A stretch of DNA of 63,672 nucleotides from the NCBI GenBank assembly GCA_003599735.1, contig QZJI01000057.1, positions 1 through 63,672 of the forward strand. The letters are read 5' to 3'. The position numbers and the translations under genes are program-made. This DNA comes from Dehalococcoidia bacterium (GTDB lineage Bacteria; Chloroflexota; Dehalococcoidia; UBA2979). How positions within the stretch are numbered: the stretch's first letter is position 1; each line of letters opens with the position of its first letter. This document shows, piece by piece, positions 12,255 to 30,574 of the stretch. The notes under the pieces were generated by a model. That model worked only from the letters and a program-made list of their open reading frames with translations, did no database searches and was not told the DNA's origin.

Positions 12255-13361
12255 ATGGATAAGGCACTCAGGCGCCGCCTCGTTCGATCTCTGAACGCTG
12301 CCCGCGGCGATCATTCGTCGAAGGACTCGATCCGACTGGCCCACGGGCCGCAACGACGTCAGCGCCAATTGGCAGAGCGCAATTGGCTTGATGCTCATCG
12401 GGCCAAAGTCCTGCCCGGCTTCGCGGAGGCATGCGAGGTCGATCCGGCCACGATGAAACCCGTCTTAGTTCCGGTCACAGCCGGGACACCGGACGCAGAC
12501 CTGTTCCGCGCCGCGACGCTGCTGTGGTCGGTACCCGTTTCTCGAGGGTACGGCCGACGAATGCGCTATCTGGTCCGCGATGATGCCAACGGCAAGATCA
12601 TTGGACTGTTTGCACTTGGCGATCCTGTCTTCAATCTCCGAGGCCGGGACGAGTGGATCGGCTGGGATGTGGCGGCGCGCCGCGAACGAATCTCTAGCGT
12701 GATGGATCTGTACATCTGTGGGGCGGTTCCGCCATACAACACGCTCCTGGGCAGCAAGCTAGTCGCGTCCCTGGCGACCTCGCAAGAAGTGGTCGACCGA
12801 TTCCGCGAGCGCTACGCGGGCCGTCGGGGGATCATCTCGGGGATCGTCAAACCGGCAGAATTGCTCGTGATCACGACGACCTCCGCGCTCGGCAAGTCGT
12901 CGCTCTACAACCGACTGAAGCTTCCGACCGATCCAGTCACTGAGTTCCACGAGATCGGATACACGCAGGGCTGGGGACATTTTTCCGTCGGCGATCGCCT
13001 CTTCATGGAGCTCCGCGATCATCTGTTGTCGGAAGATCATCGATATGCCAACGGACATCAATTCGGGACGGGGCCGAACTGGCGTCTGCGAACGATCCGA
13101 GCGGCGATGAAGTCGCTCGGCGTCAACGACGCCTTCCTGAATCACGGGATTCAGCGACAGATCTTCGCGACCGAGCTGTCCGATACGTCGCGCAAACAGC
13201 TGCGCGAAGGGATCAAACGCCGGAGAGTTCGGAGACCCTCCGCGGACGAGATTGCCGAGGCCGGCCTCGCCCGCTGGGTGCGGCCGCGGTACGCCCGTCT
13301 CGGCATACCTGCGTGGTCGCGGGCGGATCTCGAACGGTTGTTGGACGGTGACGCGGACTAG
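12255..13361 (+). CDS. DUF4338-like protein (DruA-like)
   Basis: Blocks RGYGRRMRYLVRD..NGKIIGLFALGDPVFNLRGRDEWIGW, YICGAVPPYNTLLGSKLVA, TTTSALGKSSLYNRL and GYTQGWGHFS match my recollection of Pfam DUF4338. Not verifiable without an HMM search. Confidence 0.55.
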   Translation: MDKALRRRLVRSLNAARGDHSSKDSIRLAHGPQRRQRQLAERNWLDAHRAKVLPGFAEACEVDPATMKPVLVPVTAGTPDADLFRAATLLWSVPVSRGYGRRMRYLVRDDANGKIIGLFALGDPVFNLRGRDEWIGWDVAARRERISSVMDLYICGAVPPYNTLLGSKLVASLATSQEVVDRFRERYAGRRGIISGIVKPAELLVITTTSALGKSSLYNRLKLPTDPVTEFHEIGYTQGWGHFSVGDRLFMELRDHLLSEDHRYANGHQFGTGPNWRLRTIRAAMKSLGVNDAFLNHGIQRQIFATELSDTSRKQLREGIKRRRVRRPSADEIAEAGLARWVRPRYARLGIPAWSRADLERLLDGDAD

Positions 13362-21338: not shown

Positions 21339-24300
21339 CCCCGATAGGAGAGCAGCGAGTCGGGGGCGGCGCTCGCGTAGTGGGTCGCGAGAACGAGGTA
21401 GCGCGCGGCCCGCAGGATGAAGGGCACTTCCAGGGCAATCGTCAATGCCTGTTCGATGTCATCTGCCCCTGCCCACGTGTCGAGCGTCCCTGGGGAACTC
21501 GCGAGGCGCAGCACGAATTCTGCGAGCCAACGGCGGTCTACCGGTTCGGAATGAAGCACCGCGCGGCTGAGCTCCGCGAACTCGCGCACGCGCTCCGGGG
21601 TCGACAACGTCGGCGAACTGTTCACAAGTTGCTTCAGATCCAATCGGAAGCCACTGTGCTCTCCCGGACGCGCGAGCGCGGCGTCCAGTTGCACGCGCTC
21701 GATGGACTGGTCCTCCTCGACGCGCGCCTCGGCCTGTTCCCACCAACCGCCTCCTATCACCCCCGCGATCGCTTGAGGGAAGGCGCGTACAACACGGTCT
21801 CGTCCGGCCGCTGCGAATGGATTGCCAGGAACCTCTGCCTGAGCCCATGCCGCCGTGGTGCTGATCCAAGCCCGAAGGGCTTCGAGGGTACGACTCCGGG
21901 TCAGGAAACGCGGGGGCACGCTCATCCGCTGTAGGTCGACAAGGCCTCGGATGAGTGGAGGCATGATCGACGTCGCCACGTACCCGGCACTGCGTGCGAC
22001 GTAGAGTCCGCCGGCACCGGCGCGGAAAAGCCCATCTTCGCCGACGTCGACGACGGTAGTCGCGTCGGGCTGGTCGAAATCGAGGTGCTCAACGCGGACC
22101 ACCTGATCACCCACGTTATCGTGGAGTCGCAGGAAGTAGCCGTTGCGATCCTCACCTGAACCCCATCGGAGAGGAACGAATGCGCGCTCACACTGAAGCG
22201 ACACAGCCCCCAACTCGGCGTGCGTGATCTCGATCACACCACGATTCGCGCTGTCGTACCCCTGATAGACGTCCTTTGCCTGGCGAAAGTCGCGATCGAA
22301 GATCTCCCGCCAGACGTGCGCGGCGATCGGAAGCGTGAGGGGGCCCAACTGCTTGTGGGCGATCCGTTCCGATCCCCGCTCGAGCGATACCCCTACCTCC
22401 ACTGCGACACCTGACGGGCCGAGGACATCGATGGTGGCGCGGCCCTCCCACAAGTCTTCAAGAGTCGGGGACGCCGGCCCAGCGAGAATGAGGAGAGCTT
22501 CGCGGTAGGTCCCACTTGCCGCCCGGACTCGTGGCTCTCGAACGACGATTTCGAGGTAACCCTCAACGGGCGGCGCAGTCGCGTCATCGAGCAGCAGGGC
22601 AACGCGCACCATGTGCGAGCCCACATCGAGTCCCGTGAAGCGAACGTAGGCGGATTCGCTCCGCCCGCTCGGCCATCCAACGCGCACCGGCTCCCCGCCG
22701 TCGAGGATGACGCCGCAATGGCGGACTGCGAGCGTCGACGTAATGCCCAGAATGGGCTCGTCACCGACGACCCATTCGCCGCTCCCTTCTCCGTCCCACG
22801 AAGCCGGTTCCAGTCCCGCCGGTCTCACGTCCACACCCGTCGTGACCCCGATGTTTAGGCGGGCAATCTCAAGGACATCTGCCGAAGAGATTTCGGCCGG
22901 CACCGACATCGTGTACGCGTACACCCCCGCGCAGTCGGCTGATGTGGGAGCGATCCAAGCTGGCAGCTGATCGAACTGGCGCTCCGTGATGAGGATGTAT
23001 TCGTGTCCCGGCCGAACCGCCTTCGTTCGAACCTCGGTAGCGTTTGTCGGACCAGCGAGCCTGAAGACCCAACAAGGACCGGCCGTAAATCGGCATTCGT
23101 CGGCCAGAAGTTGGTTTAGGTGGGCCTCACATTTCTCGAGTTGCAACACCGGGACGTCCGCTCCAGGCCACCTATCCAGTTCGACGCGGAGACCGACATA
23201 AAGGAGGTAGCTGGGCGGCAGCGGCGGTCGCCTTGTCATGCCGGCGACCATGCAGCGAGAGGTGGAGAGTGCAACCTCAAGCTCAGGGAAGCGCGCAATG
23301 AGAGGAGCGAAGTCCGGGGGTTCGACGAGAAGCTGCCACCCTACGGCGTTTCGCTGAAGCCCAAACTTCGCTGGAGCAACCGGCCGAGCTTCGCTGCCGC
23401 GCTCGTCGGGCCGACCGACGGATGGCGCGCTCCGGACGGCATGGGTCGCGAGCCCCCGGAGCTGAACCTTCGCCGCCGAAGTCCTCGCGTCCGTGAGCCA
23501 TCGTCGAGCCTCGCGCTCTGCCGATAGGTCGGAAACGATGCGTCGGAGCGTCGAGGCCAGCAAGAGAGGCGTTTCGCCAGCATCGACTAGGAGGGCGGAC
23601 GCGACCTGGCCGAGCAACGCGGTGTTCTGACAGAAGACGCGAAAGCGGGCTGAGGTCCTCACCGCCCGAGCCGCGAGTCTCACGCCGAGCTCGTTGGGGT
23701 TCGCGAGGAGGTTCGCAGTTAGGTGATGGCGGTACTCATACAACAACCGGGCGAGATGAAGTTGGAGATCGGTTGGTAGGACCGCGTGGGTGATAGGCCA
23801 GCAGATGTTGGTGAACTGCCCCGCCCATGCACCCTGCGGCTGAGCTCCTCCGAATGCGGATGCGAACTCTTTGAATCGATCCCGGAGCCAGGTGCGGTCG
23901 CCGTACCGCGTCCAGCCAGGAGTGGTCGCTTCGAAGGTCTGCCAGTATTCCTCGCCCTCATAGTGGTAGCCGACTTCCGCGGCGTAGACGAGGAGCGCCA
24001 GTGCCCATTTCCGTGATGGCGGTCCCTTCTGCAGGGCGGCGCGCACGTTCGAGCGGACTGTCTCGAGTTCGCTGGGATCGAGGCCGTGCTCGAGGATGAA
24101 TACCGGCCCTGTCCCCACCTGAATTGCGCGCACCGCGCGAAGCTCGCCGAAATGCGTGCTGAGCCTGTCGCTCAGGGCTTCGAGGATTCCAGCAGGCCCA
24201 ACGGGGACATGAACAGGCGCGCGAGGGGACTCCCCCAAGGTGCGTTCCGGTTCCTGGGACGCGGAAGGTCCATTCATCGCGACTACCAAACGTGGATCGG

Positions 24301-24376
24301 CACGCGTCAGAGTCGGCTGACGACCGCTGAGCCGCTGTTGGCGCCTCGCGACGCCATCCCCCAGCTCTGAGCCCAT
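21323..24376 (-). CDS. Large hypothetical protein (1017 aa), first gene of the DruE-like operon
   Basis: Uninterrupted 3-kb ORF. A perfect TATAAT lies 40 nt upstream. No catalytic motif recognised. An alternative start is MNGPS, 33 codons in. Confidence 0.6.
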   Translation of the reverse strand: MGSELGDGVARRQQRLSGRQPTLTRADPRLVVAMNGPSASQEPERTLGESPRAPVHVPVGPAGILEALSDRLSTHFGELRAVRAIQVGTGPVFILEHGLDPSELETVRSNVRAALQKGPPSRKWALALLVYAAEVGYHYEGEEYWQTFEATTPGWTRYGDRTWLRDRFKEFASAFGGAQPQGAWAGQFTNICWPITHAVLPTDLQLHLARLLYEYRHHLTANLLANPNELGVRLAARAVRTSARFRVFCQNTALLGQVASALLVDAGETPLLLASTLRRIVSDLSAEREARRWLTDARTSAAKVQLRGLATHAVRSAPSVGRPDERGSEARPVAPAKFGLQRNAVGWQLLVEPPDFAPLIARFPELEVALSTSRCMVAGMTRRPPLPPSYLLYVGLRVELDRWPGADVPVLQLEKCEAHLNQLLADECRFTAGPCWVFRLAGPTNATEVRTKAVRPGHEYILITERQFDQLPAWIAPTSADCAGVYAYTMSVPAEISSADVLEIARLNIGVTTGVDVRPAGLEPASWDGEGSGEWVVGDEPILGITSTLAVRHCGVILDGGEPVRVGWPSGRSESAYVRFTGLDVGSHMVRVALLLDDATAPPVEGYLEIVVREPRVRAASGTYREALLILAGPASPTLEDLWEGRATIDVLGPSGVAVEVGVSLERGSERIAHKQLGPLTLPIAAHVWREIFDRDFRQAKDVYQGYDSANRGVIEITHAELGAVSLQCERAFVPLRWGSGEDRNGYFLRLHDNVGDQVVRVEHLDFDQPDATTVVDVGEDGLFRAGAGGLYVARSAGYVATSIMPPLIRGLVDLQRMSVPPRFLTRSRTLEALRAWISTTAAWAQAEVPGNPFAAAGRDRVVRAFPQAIAGVIGGGWWEQAEARVEEDQSIERVQLDAALARPGEHSGFRLDLKQLVNSSPTLSTPERVREFAELSRAVLHSEPVDRRWLAEFVLRLASSPGTLDTWAGADDIEQALTIALEVPFILRAARYLVLATHYASAAPDSLLSYRGWSWE

Positions 24377-24416
24377 CCCACGTCCGTGTTTTCACGTCAG
24401 GGGGCAACCCGGCCGC

Positions 24417-24422
24417 ATTATA
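24417..24422 (-). promoter_or_regulatory. Candidate -10 box (TATAAT) for the 1017-aa/DruE-like operon
   Basis: + strand ATTATA equals minus-strand TATAAT, about 40 nt upstream of ATG 24376. Rare in this GC-rich context. The -35 is weak. Confidence 0.3.
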
Positions 24423-24796
24423 TGCGTACCTGCTCAGCGTTCGGGAGCGACGTCTGTGTCCGAGACCGAGGCGTCCGCGGTGAGTCTCAATGCAACTTGG
24501 GATGGGCGCGGCGGAGCAGGATTCGGCGGTATCGCCGAGCAGTGGCCCCCTCGAGGCTTTACACCGCGAGCGCGACGCGAAACGGCACACATCCCTTTTC
24601 GCACGACCGCGTAGTCATGCCAATGTTCACGTACAGGAAGCAGTCCCCCCGACGAGCCGGCTAGGGCAGGGGAGGCCAGCCCGAGCGAGTGGGCGTCGCA
24701 TCGAGGCAGTACCTGAGCGTCCGATCGCTCTAGATCGATGCGGGAGTGCGAGCCAGGGCATCGAATTAGCCAAACCTGGAGATCCCTGCGTCGTCG

Positions 24797-25798
24797 TCAC
24801 AGCAGGCGCCGGGACTCCATCCGCTCGACGTTCCCCTTCTCGAACATCAAGTCACTTACCTCTGAGAACGGTAGCGCTCCTCGTCGGAAGCGATCGAGGG
24901 CGTCTTCAACCTGGGCCGGTGTCAGTACGCCATCGGCATACGCTTCGAGGGGAAGACCGAGCACGGCAGCCGCGTCTCCAAGTACTTGCACAAGCGCTTC
25001 CTCCGCTTGTGCCCTCAGTGATGCCCGGAAATGCAGGAACCTGAGCTCTCGCTCGAAGTGCGCGTAATCGTTCAGCACCCGGCGGTCGCCCATGAAGATC
25101 TCACGGGCGGTCCAGCCGATCGTATGTGTTGCCTGCAGAGCCAAAAGGTCGCGGAGACGAATGTGCTCCTGCACATCGAACGTCGGCGCATCCGCATCCA
25201 TCCCCATCCACTTCGCATCCACCCAATCAGGTGTCAGCTTCTCGGGGATCGCGCCCAACTCACGGAACATCTCGTCAAGCTCGTCACCCGAGTAACGTGA
25301 TGGAAGTTCGACATGTATGAGCCGCGCGGCGGAGAGGTCAACGTCCGTCACACCGCCATAGTCAATGGAGTAGTGAGGCGGAATGTCCTCCGCTCTGGGC
25401 AATACCTGTCGCTTCCTGCCAGATACGGGATCCTCCGCGAGCCCGTGCACGATGGCGACCTCGAACAATCGCTCACGTGTCATGCCTCCGCGTCGTGGCT
25501 CAGGTGCCCGTCCCGCGTCAACCGCGAGCTCAATCCAAACTTCGTGGTCAACGAACAGTCGGCGTGCCACATCTCGGACGAAGTCGTCTGCTCCGCTGTC
25601 TTGGTAGGAGAGACTCAGCGACTCCTCAAGCGCCCATTGTTGTTCGGCTGGCTCTACCACCAGCCGATATGCATCGTTTCTGCTCGTCCGATACGGAACA
25701 ACCCCGTTCGAGACATCTTGAAAGAGCATTTGCGCGTTCAGGCTCTGGGGATAATGTCGCCCACCGGTCGGGACCCACCGAGAGATGCGTTCAGGCAT
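24797..25798 (-). CDS. Hypothetical protein (333 aa)
   Basis: Track ORF 24797..25984 trimmed to ATG 25798 (MPERISRW), which overlaps the upstream gene stop (25791-25793) by 8 nt. No domain recognised. Confidence 0.5.
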   Translation of the reverse strand: MPERISRWVPTGGRHYPQSLNAQMLFQDVSNGVVPYRTSRNDAYRLVVEPAEQQWALEESLSLSYQDSGADDFVRDVARRLFVDHEVWIELAVDAGRAPEPRRGGMTRERLFEVAIVHGLAEDPVSGRKRQVLPRAEDIPPHYSIDYGGVTDVDLSAARLIHVELPSRYSGDELDEMFRELGAIPEKLTPDWVDAKWMGMDADAPTFDVQEHIRLRDLLALQATHTIGWTAREIFMGDRRVLNDYAHFERELRFLHFRASLRAQAEEALVQVLGDAAAVLGLPLEAYADGVLTPAQVEDALDRFRRGALPFSEVSDLMFEKGNVERMESRRLL

Positions 25799-28385
25799 CG
25801 CCGATGTCCTCATCATCCGGTTCGTACTCAGGGTCTGCTTCGTTGCCTGCTCGGCTACGCAGGAAATCCAACTGCTCGTAGTAGCGACGAAGTTCAGGCC
25901 GCTTCCGGAGTTCAGCGTCCGACTCCCCTGAGAGCGGCGCCAGTACACGCGCGGCAAAGAAGACCCGCGGCTCAATCGAGACACTGGGGTAGTCCTCGTT
26001 GATGCCCAACAGCTTGGCTATCTCCGGTGCCTCCCATTGCTCATGCTCGGAGAATGGCGAGTACCGCGGACGCGCGAATCCTCTCGCGACCATGTCATTC
26101 GATAGCCGCATCTCCCAGGTCGTCCGGGTGACGCTGCGAGGAGAAATTCCAACCCCTAAACCCCATCGCGAGATATCGAGGAGGTTGAGGTACGTGCGCG
26201 GGAGCTCCTGCTTGTCGGTTTGGTTCGTCAGGAGGCGGTCCCAGGTTTCGACGATTGGGCGCGCACTTTCGTCCTGCCTGACTTCTCCATAGATCAGCGC
26301 CAGCCCGGAGACCTCGAACAGATCCATGAGAGGATCAAGTACCGCTGAATTCACCTGATACGTCGGAGCCGTGTAGGTGGTCCGGACGTAGCTATCGAGG
26401 CGTAACGAAGCCGACATGACGGCTGGAAACAAGCTGCGCACGCTCTCCGCGTCACCTACGGCGACGGCGTCCGCCAGCTCATGCAAGCAGCGGTAGTGGG
26501 CGTCACCGAACCAATCAGGCTCGGATCGATCCCTTGATGGCGTCAGTTGCGGCAGCTGCTGCGCAAGTTGCCCGAAGACGCGCTTGCGGATCGCGGCAAC
26601 CTCGCTCCGCGCGGTATCGATCTCAGGTGTTTCGACTGGAGGGTTGCCGCCTCGGAACGCCTCAAATGAGGGCAACACTGAGGCCATGCGTGTCAACGTC
26701 AGCTGTGCCTTCTCAAGCAACTGGATGCTTTGAGTACACAGCGCAACTACATTCGTCGCCGGTTGGTTCGGCGGTCCGCTCAGCGAACTGTGTTCCCGCA
26801 CTGCTCTAGGAAGGTCGCGGCAGTACTCCCGAATGGCGAAGATGGCTGAGTCAGCTAAGGCCATCCTGATGAACCAGGCTGGGCTGATGCGCTTTCCCTC
26901 GATCACGATCTCCGCTTCGAGTTGGGTTCGGAGGTCGCCGACCGCTCGGAGCACCCGACGTGGCCCGCGCACCACTCCCACTGTCGCGTCGGTCGCGATC
27001 TCCGGTGCGCTGTCTTCGATCTCCTGCGGCCACTGCTCGATCCCTTGACCCCATCCGAGCAATCTGCTCATCAGTAGGGTCGGTGGCTCCCCTTGCACCG
27101 CCCGCCCGGCGTCGTTGTCGATCTGCATGTCCCAACACATGCGCGTGACGGCTCGACAGTACACATCCGCTGCGTCCGGGTAGCGGAGCGCAGCTACTTG
27201 CGCCGCGCTGCTCGCGGTCAGAGACGACACCGTTAGCGCGGCATCCCGATCCGCGGCCGCGACAGTCGCGGCCAATACCTCGGCCATGAGCCCGCCAAGC
27301 GCTGCCTCCAGCCAGAAGAGATCGGGCTCCTCCTTCCCCTGCAGCGGAATACCGGTTCGGATCGCAAGGTCCGTGGTGGAGTTGTCCGATTCGACCCACC
27401 GCGGATAATTCGCCGCTGGCAGATGCCAACCACTGTCCGCTGGTATCCGGCGGCGCTCTTGGGAGTAGATGACGAGAGCATTGGCCACGTTCCGGGCGAG
27501 ACCAGTCAGTCTCGATGTGCTGATTGCGGCGCGCTTCTGTGATAGCCGCACAATCTGCGACAGCAGGTGCAACTGATGCTGAATGCGTCGGGCCTCACGG
27601 CGGCGCAGCGCGTCGTGCGATCCCGCCAGCCGGTCGAGGCGATTCAGACTCCTTGCTAGCTGTGATAGGGGCTCTGAAACCAGCGCCAAGGGGTCGAGGA
27701 GATTCAGGGATCCAAAGGCAAGTTGACCGAACGCGAGCGCGGCGAACGCGAGTAGTAGTGCGTAGGCACCCAGCGAGATCATCCCGAATGGGACCGAGAG
27801 GGATTCGAGGAGGACCAGGAACAACCCCACCCCGAGCGCGGCGCCCGTTAGGCGAAGCCGGCGCAGCGTGCCTGAGCCGCCCAGAACCAGGCTGCGGATG
27901 TCCGCCGACACGTCCTGGTACACCGTCCCGACCACGATGCTTACCGTCGCCAGGTAGAGCCCCAGCAGGCTCGCCGTTACCTCTGCAGCCAGCTTCGGAA
28001 ACTCCGCCATCGGAGGCCGCGTCTCACCCAGCGGAACGATCCCGGGCCAGCGCTGGGACACTAACCACTCCGCACCTAGCAGCGCCCCACCCACCGTGAT
28101 GCCAAGCGCGAGCCCACCAAGAACTCCGCCGACGGCGCGTCTCGAGGAATCTACCAGCCGCGCGACCGAATCGATCGCGTCTCGCAGACGTACCGTCTGG
28201 CTCAGGCGGCGGAGTTGTCGTGCTTCCTCACGCTCGCGCTGCTTCCAGTAGTCCCTTGTCAGCTGATTCTGAACTTGCCTCGTAAGAGGGGTGGCGCGGT
28301 CGCGGCCAGCTCTCCAGCCCATTCCCGGCAGTGTTTTGAATCGAGAAAGCCAGCCCCACATATCGGAAGCGTAAACCAATTGCAC
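25791..28385 (-). CDS. Multi-pass membrane protein with a large soluble C-terminal region (864 aa)
   Basis: Four to five hydrophobic helices within about residues 84-228 (for example VGGVLGGLALGITVGGALLGA, LLGLYLATVSIVVGTVY, GAALGVGLFLVLLESL, LGAYALLLAFAALAFGQLAF), then about 630 aa with no motif. GTG start is uncertain; the alternative is ATG 28361. Confidence 0.6.
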   Translation of the reverse strand: MQLVYASDMWGWLSRFKTLPGMGWRAGRDRATPLTRQVQNQLTRDYWKQREREEARQLRRLSQTVRLRDAIDSVARLVDSSRRAVGGVLGGLALGITVGGALLGAEWLVSQRWPGIVPLGETRPPMAEFPKLAAEVTASLLGLYLATVSIVVGTVYQDVSADIRSLVLGGSGTLRRLRLTGAALGVGLFLVLLESLSVPFGMISLGAYALLLAFAALAFGQLAFGSLNLLDPLALVSEPLSQLARSLNRLDRLAGSHDALRRREARRIQHQLHLLSQIVRLSQKRAAISTSRLTGLARNVANALVIYSQERRRIPADSGWHLPAANYPRWVESDNSTTDLAIRTGIPLQGKEEPDLFWLEAALGGLMAEVLAATVAAADRDAALTVSSLTASSAAQVAALRYPDAADVYCRAVTRMCWDMQIDNDAGRAVQGEPPTLLMSRLLGWGQGIEQWPQEIEDSAPEIATDATVGVVRGPRRVLRAVGDLRTQLEAEIVIEGKRISPAWFIRMALADSAIFAIREYCRDLPRAVREHSSLSGPPNQPATNVVALCTQSIQLLEKAQLTLTRMASVLPSFEAFRGGNPPVETPEIDTARSEVAAIRKRVFGQLAQQLPQLTPSRDRSEPDWFGDAHYRCLHELADAVAVGDAESVRSLFPAVMSASLRLDSYVRTTYTAPTYQVNSAVLDPLMDLFEVSGLALIYGEVRQDESARPIVETWDRLLTNQTDKQELPRTYLNLLDISRWGLGVGISPRSVTRTTWEMRLSNDMVARGFARPRYSPFSEHEQWEAPEIAKLLGINEDYPSVSIEPRVFFAARVLAPLSGESDAELRKRPELRRYYEQLDFLRSRAGNEADPEYEPDDEDIGDA

Positions 28386-28539
28386 GCGCCGATGCGGGCA
28401 TGTACAGAGCTACCTCCGAGCGAGAGCGCCGGGGAGCATCTGTCGCTCATGATGGAGGCAGTCCACTAAAGAGCGGGGCGAGAGAAGAGGGCTTGTGAGC
28501 GAGAGTGTCTGTGACCATGGGATGTCTCGTGCCCCGCTC

Positions 28540-29664
28540 CTAGTCAGATCCAGGCCAATCAGCAGGCAGCTCAAACGTCTCGAGTGGAGTCGCGACAGGT
28601 TCCGCGGTCTCGCTCTGCCCCTCGGTGCCCCATGTGACTTCGCGAGCGAACGGTATGAGCTCCGACTCCAGCGGGTGCCGGGCCCTTGGGTGGTGGACCA
28701 ACTGCCAAGATGCGTTCGGTCCGAGCCAGACGTGTAGCCGCGGTGCGTAAAGGACGGCGGAGGCCCTCTCGCCCCGCAGGCCTTTGCGGTCCCGCCACGC
28801 GCCGTTCGGTCGCCAGGTTTTCGTCACCGTGGCGTCAGCGTGCAGAACCCATTCCTCGTCTCCGATGAGCGCCGTGAGTAGGTGCTCGTCGCGGGCGAAC
28901 TCCACGCCTGGCACCACGACCAAGAGAAGCGGCTCACCAATGTCGTCACCATACGCGCTGGTCTTCTTCTCCACGGCGCCGCGAATTCGGATCGGTGCGT
29001 CCACCGTCACCACTTCGCTCCCGTAGCCTCCGCGCGCGCCTTCAGGCTCAAGGCCGGGCTTCAGCCGGTACGCCACGATCTCAGCCTCCCAGCCTTCTCC
29101 ACTCCACTCCATTGATGGGTTGGAGTCGGTGTCTGGCAGCGTCTCGACCCAGCCAGTGACATCGCGAAGAAACGTTCCCCGACGGATCGGACGCTCGCCA
29201 GCCGCCCGGGAGTGATACATCAACGTCCATTTGTCGCTCACGACCTCGTTAAGGAGATCAACCGCCTGCATGCGCAGATCCTCAGTGCGAGCGTCGTCCT
29301 CGCGGGGGTTTGCCGTCGTGCACTCCACGAGAAACGAGAGGTCCCCTCGGCGCGCACGGAAGTCGGGACGCTTCGTCGTGCCGGGGATCTTCGGATGCAC
29401 CTCGACCTCGAAGCGCAGGCGGTGCAGGATCGCCATCGTCACAAGCTCGACTAAGGCGCCAAGGTGTACGGCGTGGTCGCGGCTGATGAAGCGCTGGCGC
29501 ACGTCGTGCTGAGCATCGTCCGGAAAGAGCTCAAACGCTTCTTCCAGGAAGGCGCGGACATGCACCGCTGGGACGCGTCCAGTGCGATTGAGGTAGGCGA
29601 ACGGTGCCTCGCGGAAGTCGGCCTCATCCACCGAGGTGCGTTGGCGGTCGCTGAACAGCTTCAT
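28540..29664 (-). CDS. Hypothetical protein (374 aa), possible restriction-endonuclease-like fold
   Basis: Start set at MKLFSD (GGAGAA lies 8 nt upstream). KRPDFRARRGDLSFLVECTT is loosely PD..ExK-like but lacks the Lys. Confidence 0.5.
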   Translation of the reverse strand: MKLFSDRQRTSVDEADFREAPFAYLNRTGRVPAVHVRAFLEEAFELFPDDAQHDVRQRFISRDHAVHLGALVELVTMAILHRLRFEVEVHPKIPGTTKRPDFRARRGDLSFLVECTTANPREDDARTEDLRMQAVDLLNEVVSDKWTLMYHSRAAGERPIRRGTFLRDVTGWVETLPDTDSNPSMEWSGEGWEAEIVAYRLKPGLEPEGARGGYGSEVVTVDAPIRIRGAVEKKTSAYGDDIGEPLLLVVVPGVEFARDEHLLTALIGDEEWVLHADATVTKTWRPNGAWRDRKGLRGERASAVLYAPRLHVWLGPNASWQLVHHPRARHPLESELIPFAREVTWGTEGQSETAEPVATPLETFELPADWPGSD

Positions 29665-30160
29665 GCAACGTTTCTCCGCTCGGTGCATCGTACCGAGGGA
29701 AGCATGGGCGCAACCTTAACGGGCGCCGCGCCCTGCGCGGAACGATGGGTCGAGGCTCTGCCGACGATCCGAGTCCGCCAGTTGGTGCTCGTACAAGTGC
29801 GCAGCGCCCCTTTGACCCCGGCAGCACGAGCCGGGCCAGACAGGGACAAGGTGGGACGAGACGGTATCGGGCGGCATGAGCGGCGCCGCGACCTTCCTGC
29901 CCTCACGCCGACTGCCTTCCACCTGGGAGTGGAACGACGCGCCTAAGCCGTTGCTGTAGCGATTTGCCACACGGACAGGCCTGCGAGCACCGCGGCTGCT
30001 CCCTGTGGGAGCCCGCGCGGGGCCGGGGCGCTTCCCGCCCGCCGACCACATCGCCCGTCGCTCTCAGCCGTACTCGAACGGGGAGCCCGCTGACACGAAA
30101 CGTTCGCCCCGCTCAAGTGTGCTGGTGGGTACATGGGCGAGACGCTCTGAGGTGCCCGAG

Positions 30161-30194
30161 CACCCGACAAAACGCCCGACAAACGCCCGACAAC
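30161..30194 (+). repeat. Three tandem direct repeats, consensus CGCCCGACAAA
   Basis: CACCCGACAAAA CGCCCGACAAA CGCCCGACAAC read directly. Lies about 110 nt left of the tRNA fragment. Confidence 0.8.
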
Positions 30195-30305
30195 AGCGCG
30201 TGAAATCGGGGGGCTTGGCGTGGTTCCGAGTGAAATTCGAGATCAACAATCCCTTGTAATTACTGGGGTTTGTGGCGATCAGTGGCCACGGGTGCGCTCG
30301 GACGG

Positions 30306-30355
30306 ACGGACTTCTAATCCGCTGGTCGGAAGTTCGAATCTTCCCGAGGGCGCCA
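30306..30355 (+). pseudogene. Truncated tRNA-Arg(UCU) 3' half (anticodon arm to CCA), att-like junction
   Basis: ACGGA-CTTCTAA-TCCGC anticodon arm (TCT at 30313-30315), variable TGGTC, T-arm GGAAG-TTCGAAT-CTTCC, acceptor 3' strand CGAGGGC, discriminator G, then CCA. No D-arm or matching 5' acceptor strand lies upstream. Confidence 0.65.
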
Positions 30356-30574
30356 CTGATTCCGGCATCGCAGCCACGAGCCAGGCAGGAGCGGTCTACG
30401 CCGCTCGATGAGTGGACCCAGCGATCCGCGAGCGTCGTACATTGAAGGCGCCAGCAAGCGTGCGCGCGAACCCCCGTGGGTCGAATCTGCACCTCGACGA
30501 ATGACGCCGGAATTTTCCCAGAGGTGCCGTCGAAATCTGAACCTCATGACCCAGATCGTGGAAAGGAGAATCCG

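Follow-up and report, generated by a model that had tools for sequence, protein, structure and literature searches.

Organization of the gene pair

This study concerns a pair of overlapping genes, here named A and B, on contig QZJI01000057.1 of a Dehalococcoidia bacterium (assembly GCA_003599735.1); the whole analysed stretch of 63,672 nucleotides (nt) is referred to as the window. Both genes are read from the minus strand. The open reading frame (ORF) of gene A, the presumed membrane anchor, occupies positions 25791-28385 and encodes 864 amino acids (aa) when read from a GTG codon at 28385. Gene B, which codes for an acidic soluble protein with a predicted portal-like fold, occupies positions 24797-25798 and encodes 333 aa when read from ATG at 25798; the ORF that holds it extends over 24797-25984. 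The two genes share an 8-nt overlap, ATGCCTGA (25791-25798, minus strand): in GATGCCTGA, the start codon of B (25798-25796) lies 8 nt ahead of the last base of the stop codon of A (25793-25791). A Shine-Dalgarno-like GAGGA (25807-25811, minus strand) stands 8 nt upstream of the ATG of gene B. The original prediction, made from the window sequence alone, had claimed two overlapping genes at this place, and both the genes and the length of their overlap were confirmed. It had also supposed that they are co-translated. Overlaps of 4-23 nt between the stop of A and the start of B recur in most of the related loci, which supports translational coupling of the two genes through their stop and start codons.

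The length claimed for protein A needs a correction. The ORF does yield 864 aa from the GTG codon, but the true product most likely has 856 aa and starts at ATG 28361, because conservation with relatives (P0002, L001 and others) begins at the methionine of this codon, and DNA homology to the nearest relative, locus L001, begins at 28374, close to it. The recorded products use internal starts and comprise 739 aa for A and 287 aa for B. Since the homologs span the full 856-aa and 333-aa forms, both records are too short; that of A drops the N-terminal helix together with the first transmembrane (TM) helix and thus presents an annotation pitfall for the whole A family. Substitution ratios calculated against orthologs with 73-75% protein identity (dN/dS about 0.17 for A and about 0.11 for B, with dS near saturation) confirm that both genes are real and under purifying selection.

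Predicted architecture of protein A

Three parts can be distinguished in protein A. Residues 1-75 (28137-28361, minus strand) are predicted from charge counts and alignments to form a basic cytoplasmic N-terminal helix, with 18 lysines and arginines against 8 aspartates and glutamates. This helix contains a conserved T-x-x-Y-W-x-x-R motif, in which T35, Y38, W39 and R42 are invariant in alignment A1 and W39 is nearly invariant across 52 sequences. Residues 76-221 (27699-28136, minus strand) comprise four TM helices, delineated by hydropathy, positive-inside charges, helices of the AlphaFold2 (AF2) model and sub-threshold DUF2254 matches in relatives. The hydrophobic segments of the Kyte-Doolittle scan lie at 84-106, 132-156, 177 to about 200 and about 205-230 (numbering of the 864-aa form). 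Four or five N-terminal TM helices had been expected originally; the scan retains four of them, but not a fifth. The 60 residues past TM4 carry 11 lysines and arginines, and few charges occur in the two loops that face outward, both of them short. This distribution of charges around the TM helices predicts that both ends of the protein point inward (N-in/C-in), which puts the large C-terminal domain in the cytoplasm.

This domain, residues 222-856 (25794-27698, minus strand; about 635 aa), is predicted to be all-alpha and solenoid or toroid-like, according to the AF2 model, Foldseek and alignments of 52 and 64 sequences. The AF2 model of A, calculated from a 7-sequence alignment, is all-alpha and reaches a pLDDT of 75 and a pTM of 0.69, with blocks of the soluble domain at pLDDT 80-96. 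Foldseek returned weak, generic matches to helical-repeat proteins, the best of them a designed circular tandem-repeat (toroid) protein with TM score of at most 0.17. Residues W312, W350, E352, E484, W496, D616, G619 and W707 are invariant among 52-64 members of the family, and no catalytic motif was recognised among them. Scans of A against Pfam, NCBIfam, PADLOC and PHROGs gave zero families, in the case of PADLOC even at E<=10.

The only Pfam signal that recurs in the A family is DUF2254, a predicted membrane protein family. It was met in 6 of 52 relatives, every time below the Pfam threshold (best E 5.5e-4), and the A protein of the window itself has no match to it. DUF2254, which had been suggested originally for comparison, is a weak lead. 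It is without known function, so that the link explains nothing.

Protein B and its predicted portal fold

The AF2 model of protein B, based on an alignment of 15 sequences, has a pLDDT of 84 and a pTM of 0.85. When it was compared to the PDB by Foldseek, all 50 matches listed were portals of tailed phages or of an archaeal tailed virus, with probability up to 1.0, E values from 1.4e-3 and TMq of 0.40-0.46. The portals of lambda, T4, Chi, phage 812, HFTV1, P23-45, BB1 and T1 are among them (for example lambda gpB, 8k39 and 8k38; T4 gp20, 6uzc; phage 812, 8qem; HFTV1, 8qsy). The comparison with BFVD gave the same picture, nearly all named top matches being portals, with E values from 5.9e-4 and TMq up to 0.48. 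We consider it quite probable, judging from the model, that B truly has a portal-type fold.

Protein B is acidic (isoelectric point 5.0) and has no hydrophobic TM segment in the Kyte-Doolittle scan. Its best-conserved region, residues 227-280 (24959-25120, minus strand), was defined by alignment A6 and the secondary structure of the model. Its loop contains the motif I-G-W-T-A-R (I-G-W-x-A-R in the family, with G228, W229 and R232), and a helix of 40 residues comes next, which bears R250, L252, F254 and the invariant R262. Considering the known order of portal elements, this loop and helix may resemble the tunnel loop and the long wing helix of portals.

The likeness stays confined to structure. 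No family in Pfam, NCBIfam or PADLOC (the last even at E<=10) was found for B, and none of the 15 or 30 members of the B family matched the portal sequence families of Pfam and PHROGs at E<=1. Sequence-profile searches of the PDB returned noise only for both A and B, and no link of B to portals.

A and B occur as a pair

An exhaustive profile search revealed 1,286 representatives of the A family at E<=1e-3, each standing for a cluster at 50% identity, and 673 at E<=1e-30. A preceding word-index search had given 3 relatives of A and falsely suggested rarity, which the exhaustive search corrected. The members are mostly 780-900 aa long and are matched along their full length. Ten sampled clusters bear a sole name, "hypothetical protein". 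Named records come from Chloroflexota, Bacillota and Pseudomonadota; the named carriers are three metagenome-assembled genomes of Dehalococcoidia, two Paenibacillus plasmids and one conjugative plasmid of Burkholderia glumae. A plasmid search with the A protein of the window had no match, and the three plasmids were found with distant family members as queries.

Of 41 related loci that we retrieved, about 30 are unique; 39 were searched with profiles and the other two were judged from their gene tables. In every locus with room downstream of A, gene B comes next on the same strand (by hmmsearch in the 39 loci, and likewise in the other two). The distant B proteins are true homologs of B, with hhalign probabilities of 98-99%. 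It had been reasoned at the outset that homologs of A without the partner gene, or mainly outside defence islands and mobile elements, would speak against a defence pair; B always follows A in the related loci, and the defence reading came through this check.

One locus from a JGI metagenome contig (L015, 7863-11435) encodes A and B fused as a single protein of 1,145 aa, P0104, which matches both profiles. The same locus also encodes a SNF2 helicase, a protein with a transglutaminase core and an HNH_2 protein. The distance matrices of A and B from 22 loci correlate with a Mantel r of 0.96, and 0 of 2,000 permutations gave a value as high. The predicted N-in/C-in topology together with the natural fusion places the cytoplasmic domain of A and protein B in the same compartment. 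We infer from the fusion, the coupling, the shared compartment and the co-divergence that a physical complex of A and B is very likely.

In L005 (3995-10966), an IS21 element (IstA/IstB) is inserted in gene A and divides it into N- and C-terminal pieces, while B is intact. L006 has a B sequence identical to that of L005, behind an A gene free of the insertion sequence (IS) and with apparent frameshifts.

Independence from the neighbouring Druantia genes

Downstream of the pair and on the same strand, the window encodes a 1017-aa protein without a family, DruD (PADLOC E 2.5e-113), DruE (1,941 bits) and a Cas4/DruK-like PD-(D/E)XK nuclease. DruA is divergent (12255-13361), and neither DruB nor DruC is present in its canonical form. 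A primase, a DUF6094 methylase, a SNF2-type helicase and a ParB-like protein are encoded within the initial 12 kb of the window, and the genes from about 30.4 kb onward look chromosomal. The GC content drops from about 0.70 to 0.60-0.65 over 12-30 kb and has its minimum, 0.605, over gene A. By the GC profile and the surrounding gene content, the pair is cargo carried by an integrative element at its end, beside a variant of Druantia type I. Rfam recorded a single match in 24000-30500, a tRNA at 30294-30352 on the plus strand (34.4 bits, E 2e-4), and ARAGORN detected no tRNA anywhere in the window. The match would fit a truncated tRNA copy that marks the end of an integrative element.

The spacer between gene B and the gene of the 1017-aa protein (start at 24376) measures 420 nt (24377-24796) and contains a TATAAT at 24422-24417, as had been predicted. 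Apart from this hexamer, the scans picked out nothing in the spacer: Rfam did not match it, and neither a terminator nor a complete sigma-70-like promoter was predicted.

The original prediction regarded the pair as probably a unit independent of the operon downstream, and the related loci agree with this. No homologs of DruA, DruD, DruE, the 1017-aa protein, the Cas4-like protein or the 382-aa protein encoded upstream of the pair were detected in 39 other pair loci when all their ORFs were searched by blastp. Similarity of the window to L001 amounts to 75% at the DNA level over 3.6 kb, from 28374 to 24795, which is exactly the extent of the two ORFs; the sequences on either side show no relation. 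Because Druantia genes do not appear in the other loci and the homology ends at the edges of the cassette, we conclude that the pair is an autonomous moving cassette and not a part of Druantia; its membership in that system was rejected. The Druantia variant at this locus should accordingly be analysed without genes A and B.

The 382-aa gene mentioned above lies directly upstream of the pair (28540-29688, minus strand). It has no Pfam family and a weak PADLOC match to PD-T7-1 (E 2e-5), and may represent a separate single-gene defence candidate. A three-gene module including it was considered and rejected: the gene is unrelated to the gene after the pair in L001 and does not occur in the other loci.

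Neighbourhoods of the related pairs

The original prediction had also placed the pair in a defence island, and in the related loci it often sits among genes of defence systems and mobile elements. Restriction-modification (R-M) neighbours include Type III R-M, SfiI-like R-M and Type ISP R-M with AbiEi. Other neighbours of defence type are a KAP NTPase and HIRAN, both in a locus with an integrase, DUF3800, an AAA_21/AAA_15 ATPase, Fic, Uma2, HTH-Smr, HEPN, a methyltransferase-HNH protein and a Schlafen-like protein. Mobility genes are represented by integrases and, in three loci, by Replic_Relax relaxases; near one copy of the pair there are a TraG/VirD4-like coupling protein, a relaxase and two serine recombinases. 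On the Burkholderia glumae plasmid (L038, NZ_CP021077.1, 141130-145551), the pair and a CopG/VapC (VapBC) toxin-antitoxin are enclosed between identical IS66 copies, an arrangement on a conjugative plasmid that looks like a composite transposon.

In another locus (L042, 1-8990), the pair is immediately preceded by genes for a DUF1156 methylase, a SNF2 helicase, an AAA_13 ATPase and a protein of 441 aa. By their composition they may form a DISARM-like or other defence cluster.

Neither the A nor the B family has a match in IMG/VR, and A has none among 50,697 phage records; viral origin of the locus was rejected on these grounds. In approximately 30 neighbourhoods of the pair we saw no genes for a capsid, a terminase, a protease or a tail.

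Relation to known systems

It had been noted originally that the sizes of the two proteins suit no known system, and neither of them has a match in Pfam, NCBIfam or PADLOC. The analogy then offered was Kiwa. Of the solved Kiwa proteins, KwaA consists of four TM helices and a beta-barrel, whereas KwaB combines a Rossmann-like domain with DUF4868; KwaB binds entering phage DNA and acts also against conjugation (bioRxiv 10.1101/2023.02.26.530102). The two systems are alike in architecture only: each is a two-gene operon from a defence-island setting, in which a protein with four TM helices anchors, or would anchor, a soluble partner of similar size (about 320 aa in Kiwa, 333 aa for B). KwaA, however, has about 200 aa with a small beta-barrel, in contrast to the 856 aa of A with its 635-aa alpha-helical domain, and KwaB forms dimers of the composition given above, whereas B is predicted to be portal-like. 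Neither A nor B matched KwaA or KwaB (PADLOC, E<=10 for both proteins) or DUF4868 (Pfam), and no KwaB structure appears among the 50 PDB matches listed for B. Because the defining domains KwaA, KwaB and DUF4868 were tested and are absent, the pair is not Kiwa. What survives of this comparison is the general principle that a soluble protein is paired with an anchor in the membrane; membership does not.

A further precedent, for immunity that is stationed where the genome crosses the membrane, is SNIPE, a nuclease bound to the membrane, which cleaves phage DNA as it is injected (bioRxiv 10.1101/2025.11.03.685801). SNIPE is one protein with a nuclease domain, unlike A and B, in neither of which a nuclease motif was found.

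The predicted fold of B resembles that of the portals of tailed phages, archaeal tailed viruses and gene transfer agents (GTAs); B is acidic as well and has a 40-residue helix after a conserved loop. It differs from the portals in being smaller (333 aa) and in having no detectable sequence similarity, and in all cases its partner, by coupling or by fusion, is a membrane protein. It also never stands beside terminase or capsid genes in the neighbourhoods inspected, and was not found in the phage collections. In phage T4, the membrane protein gp40 helps the portal gp20 to assemble on the membrane. This initiator of head assembly resembles our proposal for the pair, since there too a membrane protein keeps a portal on the cytoplasmic side of the inner membrane. 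The T4 complex, though, is a viral assembly intermediate that builds a capsid, while genes A and B are cellular or borne by mobile elements and have no capsid genes at their side.

Literature searches on portal-like defence proteins and on DUF2254, and the DefensePredictor paper with its supplements, yielded no description of the pair. Most likely it is an undescribed system, outside PADLOC 2.0, Pfam and NCBIfam.

Proposed function

We propose, with a probability of about one half, that the pair is an autonomous, horizontally mobile module acting against phages or other mobile DNA, in which A anchors an oligomer of B at the membrane. The physical complex, its oligomeric state, the defence function, the target and the mechanism are all things we infer for the pair, and the following model should be read in this sense. 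Protein A would sit in the inner membrane by its four TM helices, with the basic N-terminus and the alpha-helical domain of about 635 aa, and hence both its ends, in the cytoplasm. Protein B, presumably made in fixed proportion to A through translational coupling, would bind the cytoplasmic domain of A. In this way B, as an oligomer and probably as a ring, would be kept by A on the cytoplasmic side of the membrane. In this position it might engage a molecule that would ordinarily encounter a portal or traverse it, and infection would be blocked.

Three variants of this last step can be imagined, and we give them roughly equal weight. In one of them, B captures the end of linear DNA as it enters the cell, by analogy to KwaB of Kiwa (bioRxiv 10.1101/2023.02.26.530102). 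In another, B is a bait or decoy for the partners that dock to a portal, such as terminase-DNA, scaffold or capsid, and poisons head assembly or packaging. In the remaining one, B senses a portal-docking protein and the TM bundle of A then depolarises the cell. The TM bundle could thus be an anchor alone, or could serve also for signalling or leak.

Several observations weigh against the proposed defence function. The similarity of B to portals is structural only, with TMq of at most 0.48 and E values around 1e-3, and the underlying model was calculated from 15 sequences. Neither A nor B revealed an enzymatic domain or a known effector domain. Some loci have housekeeping or metabolic neighbours, and the PADLOC tally over 87 neighbours is modest. 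The association with defence islands was read from lists of neighbours and is suggestive. Several copies of the pair adjoin conjugation genes, which would fit a role in transfer as well. Finally, since no terminator was detected in the 420-nt gap, co-transcription of the pair with Druantia is possible in the window. All sequencing runs in which this sequence was met are DNA runs from metagenomes, with small shares of it.

The conjugation genes lead to the idea that the pair serves the mobile element itself, by entry or surface exclusion, by handling of transferred DNA at the membrane in monoderm conjugation, or by maintenance of the element. Copies directly beside Replic_Relax relaxases and the TraG/VirD4-like coupling protein, and the copy on a conjugative plasmid, speak for it, as do the primase, DUF6094 methylase, SNF2 helicase and ParB genes in the element of the window; a membrane ring with a DNA channel would also suit DNA transfer. 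Many copies, however, are accompanied by an integrase only or by no mobility genes at all, the boundary of the cassette coincides with the two ORFs, and no other genes of mating-pair formation travel along. On balance we take such a service to the element to be unlikely. A membrane or stress function in the host, unrelated to foreign DNA, would leave the portal likeness as convergence or an artefact of the model. Loci that have metabolic neighbours only, the sub-threshold resemblance to DUF2254 as a generic predicted membrane protein family and the modest fold match (TMq 0.4-0.48) could be understood in this way. The patchy spread of the pair over phyla and unrelated contexts could not be so easily, nor could its GC content, atypical for the surrounding DNA, its presence on plasmids and between IS elements, the dispensability suggested by the A gene split by IS21, or the fact that all 50 PDB matches listed and nearly all named BFVD matches are portals. 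We therefore find a host function rather improbable.

The predicted fold of B, and the T4 precedent of a portal assembling on the membrane with gp40, might instead suggest that the pair is left over from, or still works in, a virus-like particle, a satellite or a GTA-type packaging system that has escaped recognition, with B as a true portal. This is very doubtful, because genes of capsid, terminase, protease and tail were not seen in the approximately 30 neighbourhoods, IMG/VR and the phage records hold no matches, no portal profile recognises B, and B is tied always to a protein with four TM helices and never to a terminase. As for the Druantia type I variant next to the pair, A and B could be its accessory, either as substitutes for the missing DruB and DruC or as a sensor in the membrane; they lie on the same strand directly upstream of the Druantia genes, with no predicted terminator between. 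Against the absence of any Druantia gene from the 39 other pair loci, and the gap with its TATAAT ahead of the Druantia genes, this explanation is hardly credible.

Returning to the proposed defence module, one can go a step further and imagine where B came from. It might belong to a large cellular, non-viral family descended from a phage portal, and would then form a ring, tethered to the membrane by A as its dedicated partner, that either clamps the end of incoming phage or plasmid DNA or serves as a decoy portal vertex and captures the packaging motor or proteins of head assembly. We present this as a speculation with rather long odds. If it is true, the tethered ring of portal descent would represent a new class of immunity that works without enzymes and makes use of a captured part of the virion.

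Taken together, the A family comprises at least 1,286 clusters (50% identity) and has no entry in Pfam, NCBIfam or PADLOC. If the pair is a defence module as we propose, it would be a widespread system without an enzymatic domain, and a rare case of cells recruiting a core virion fold.

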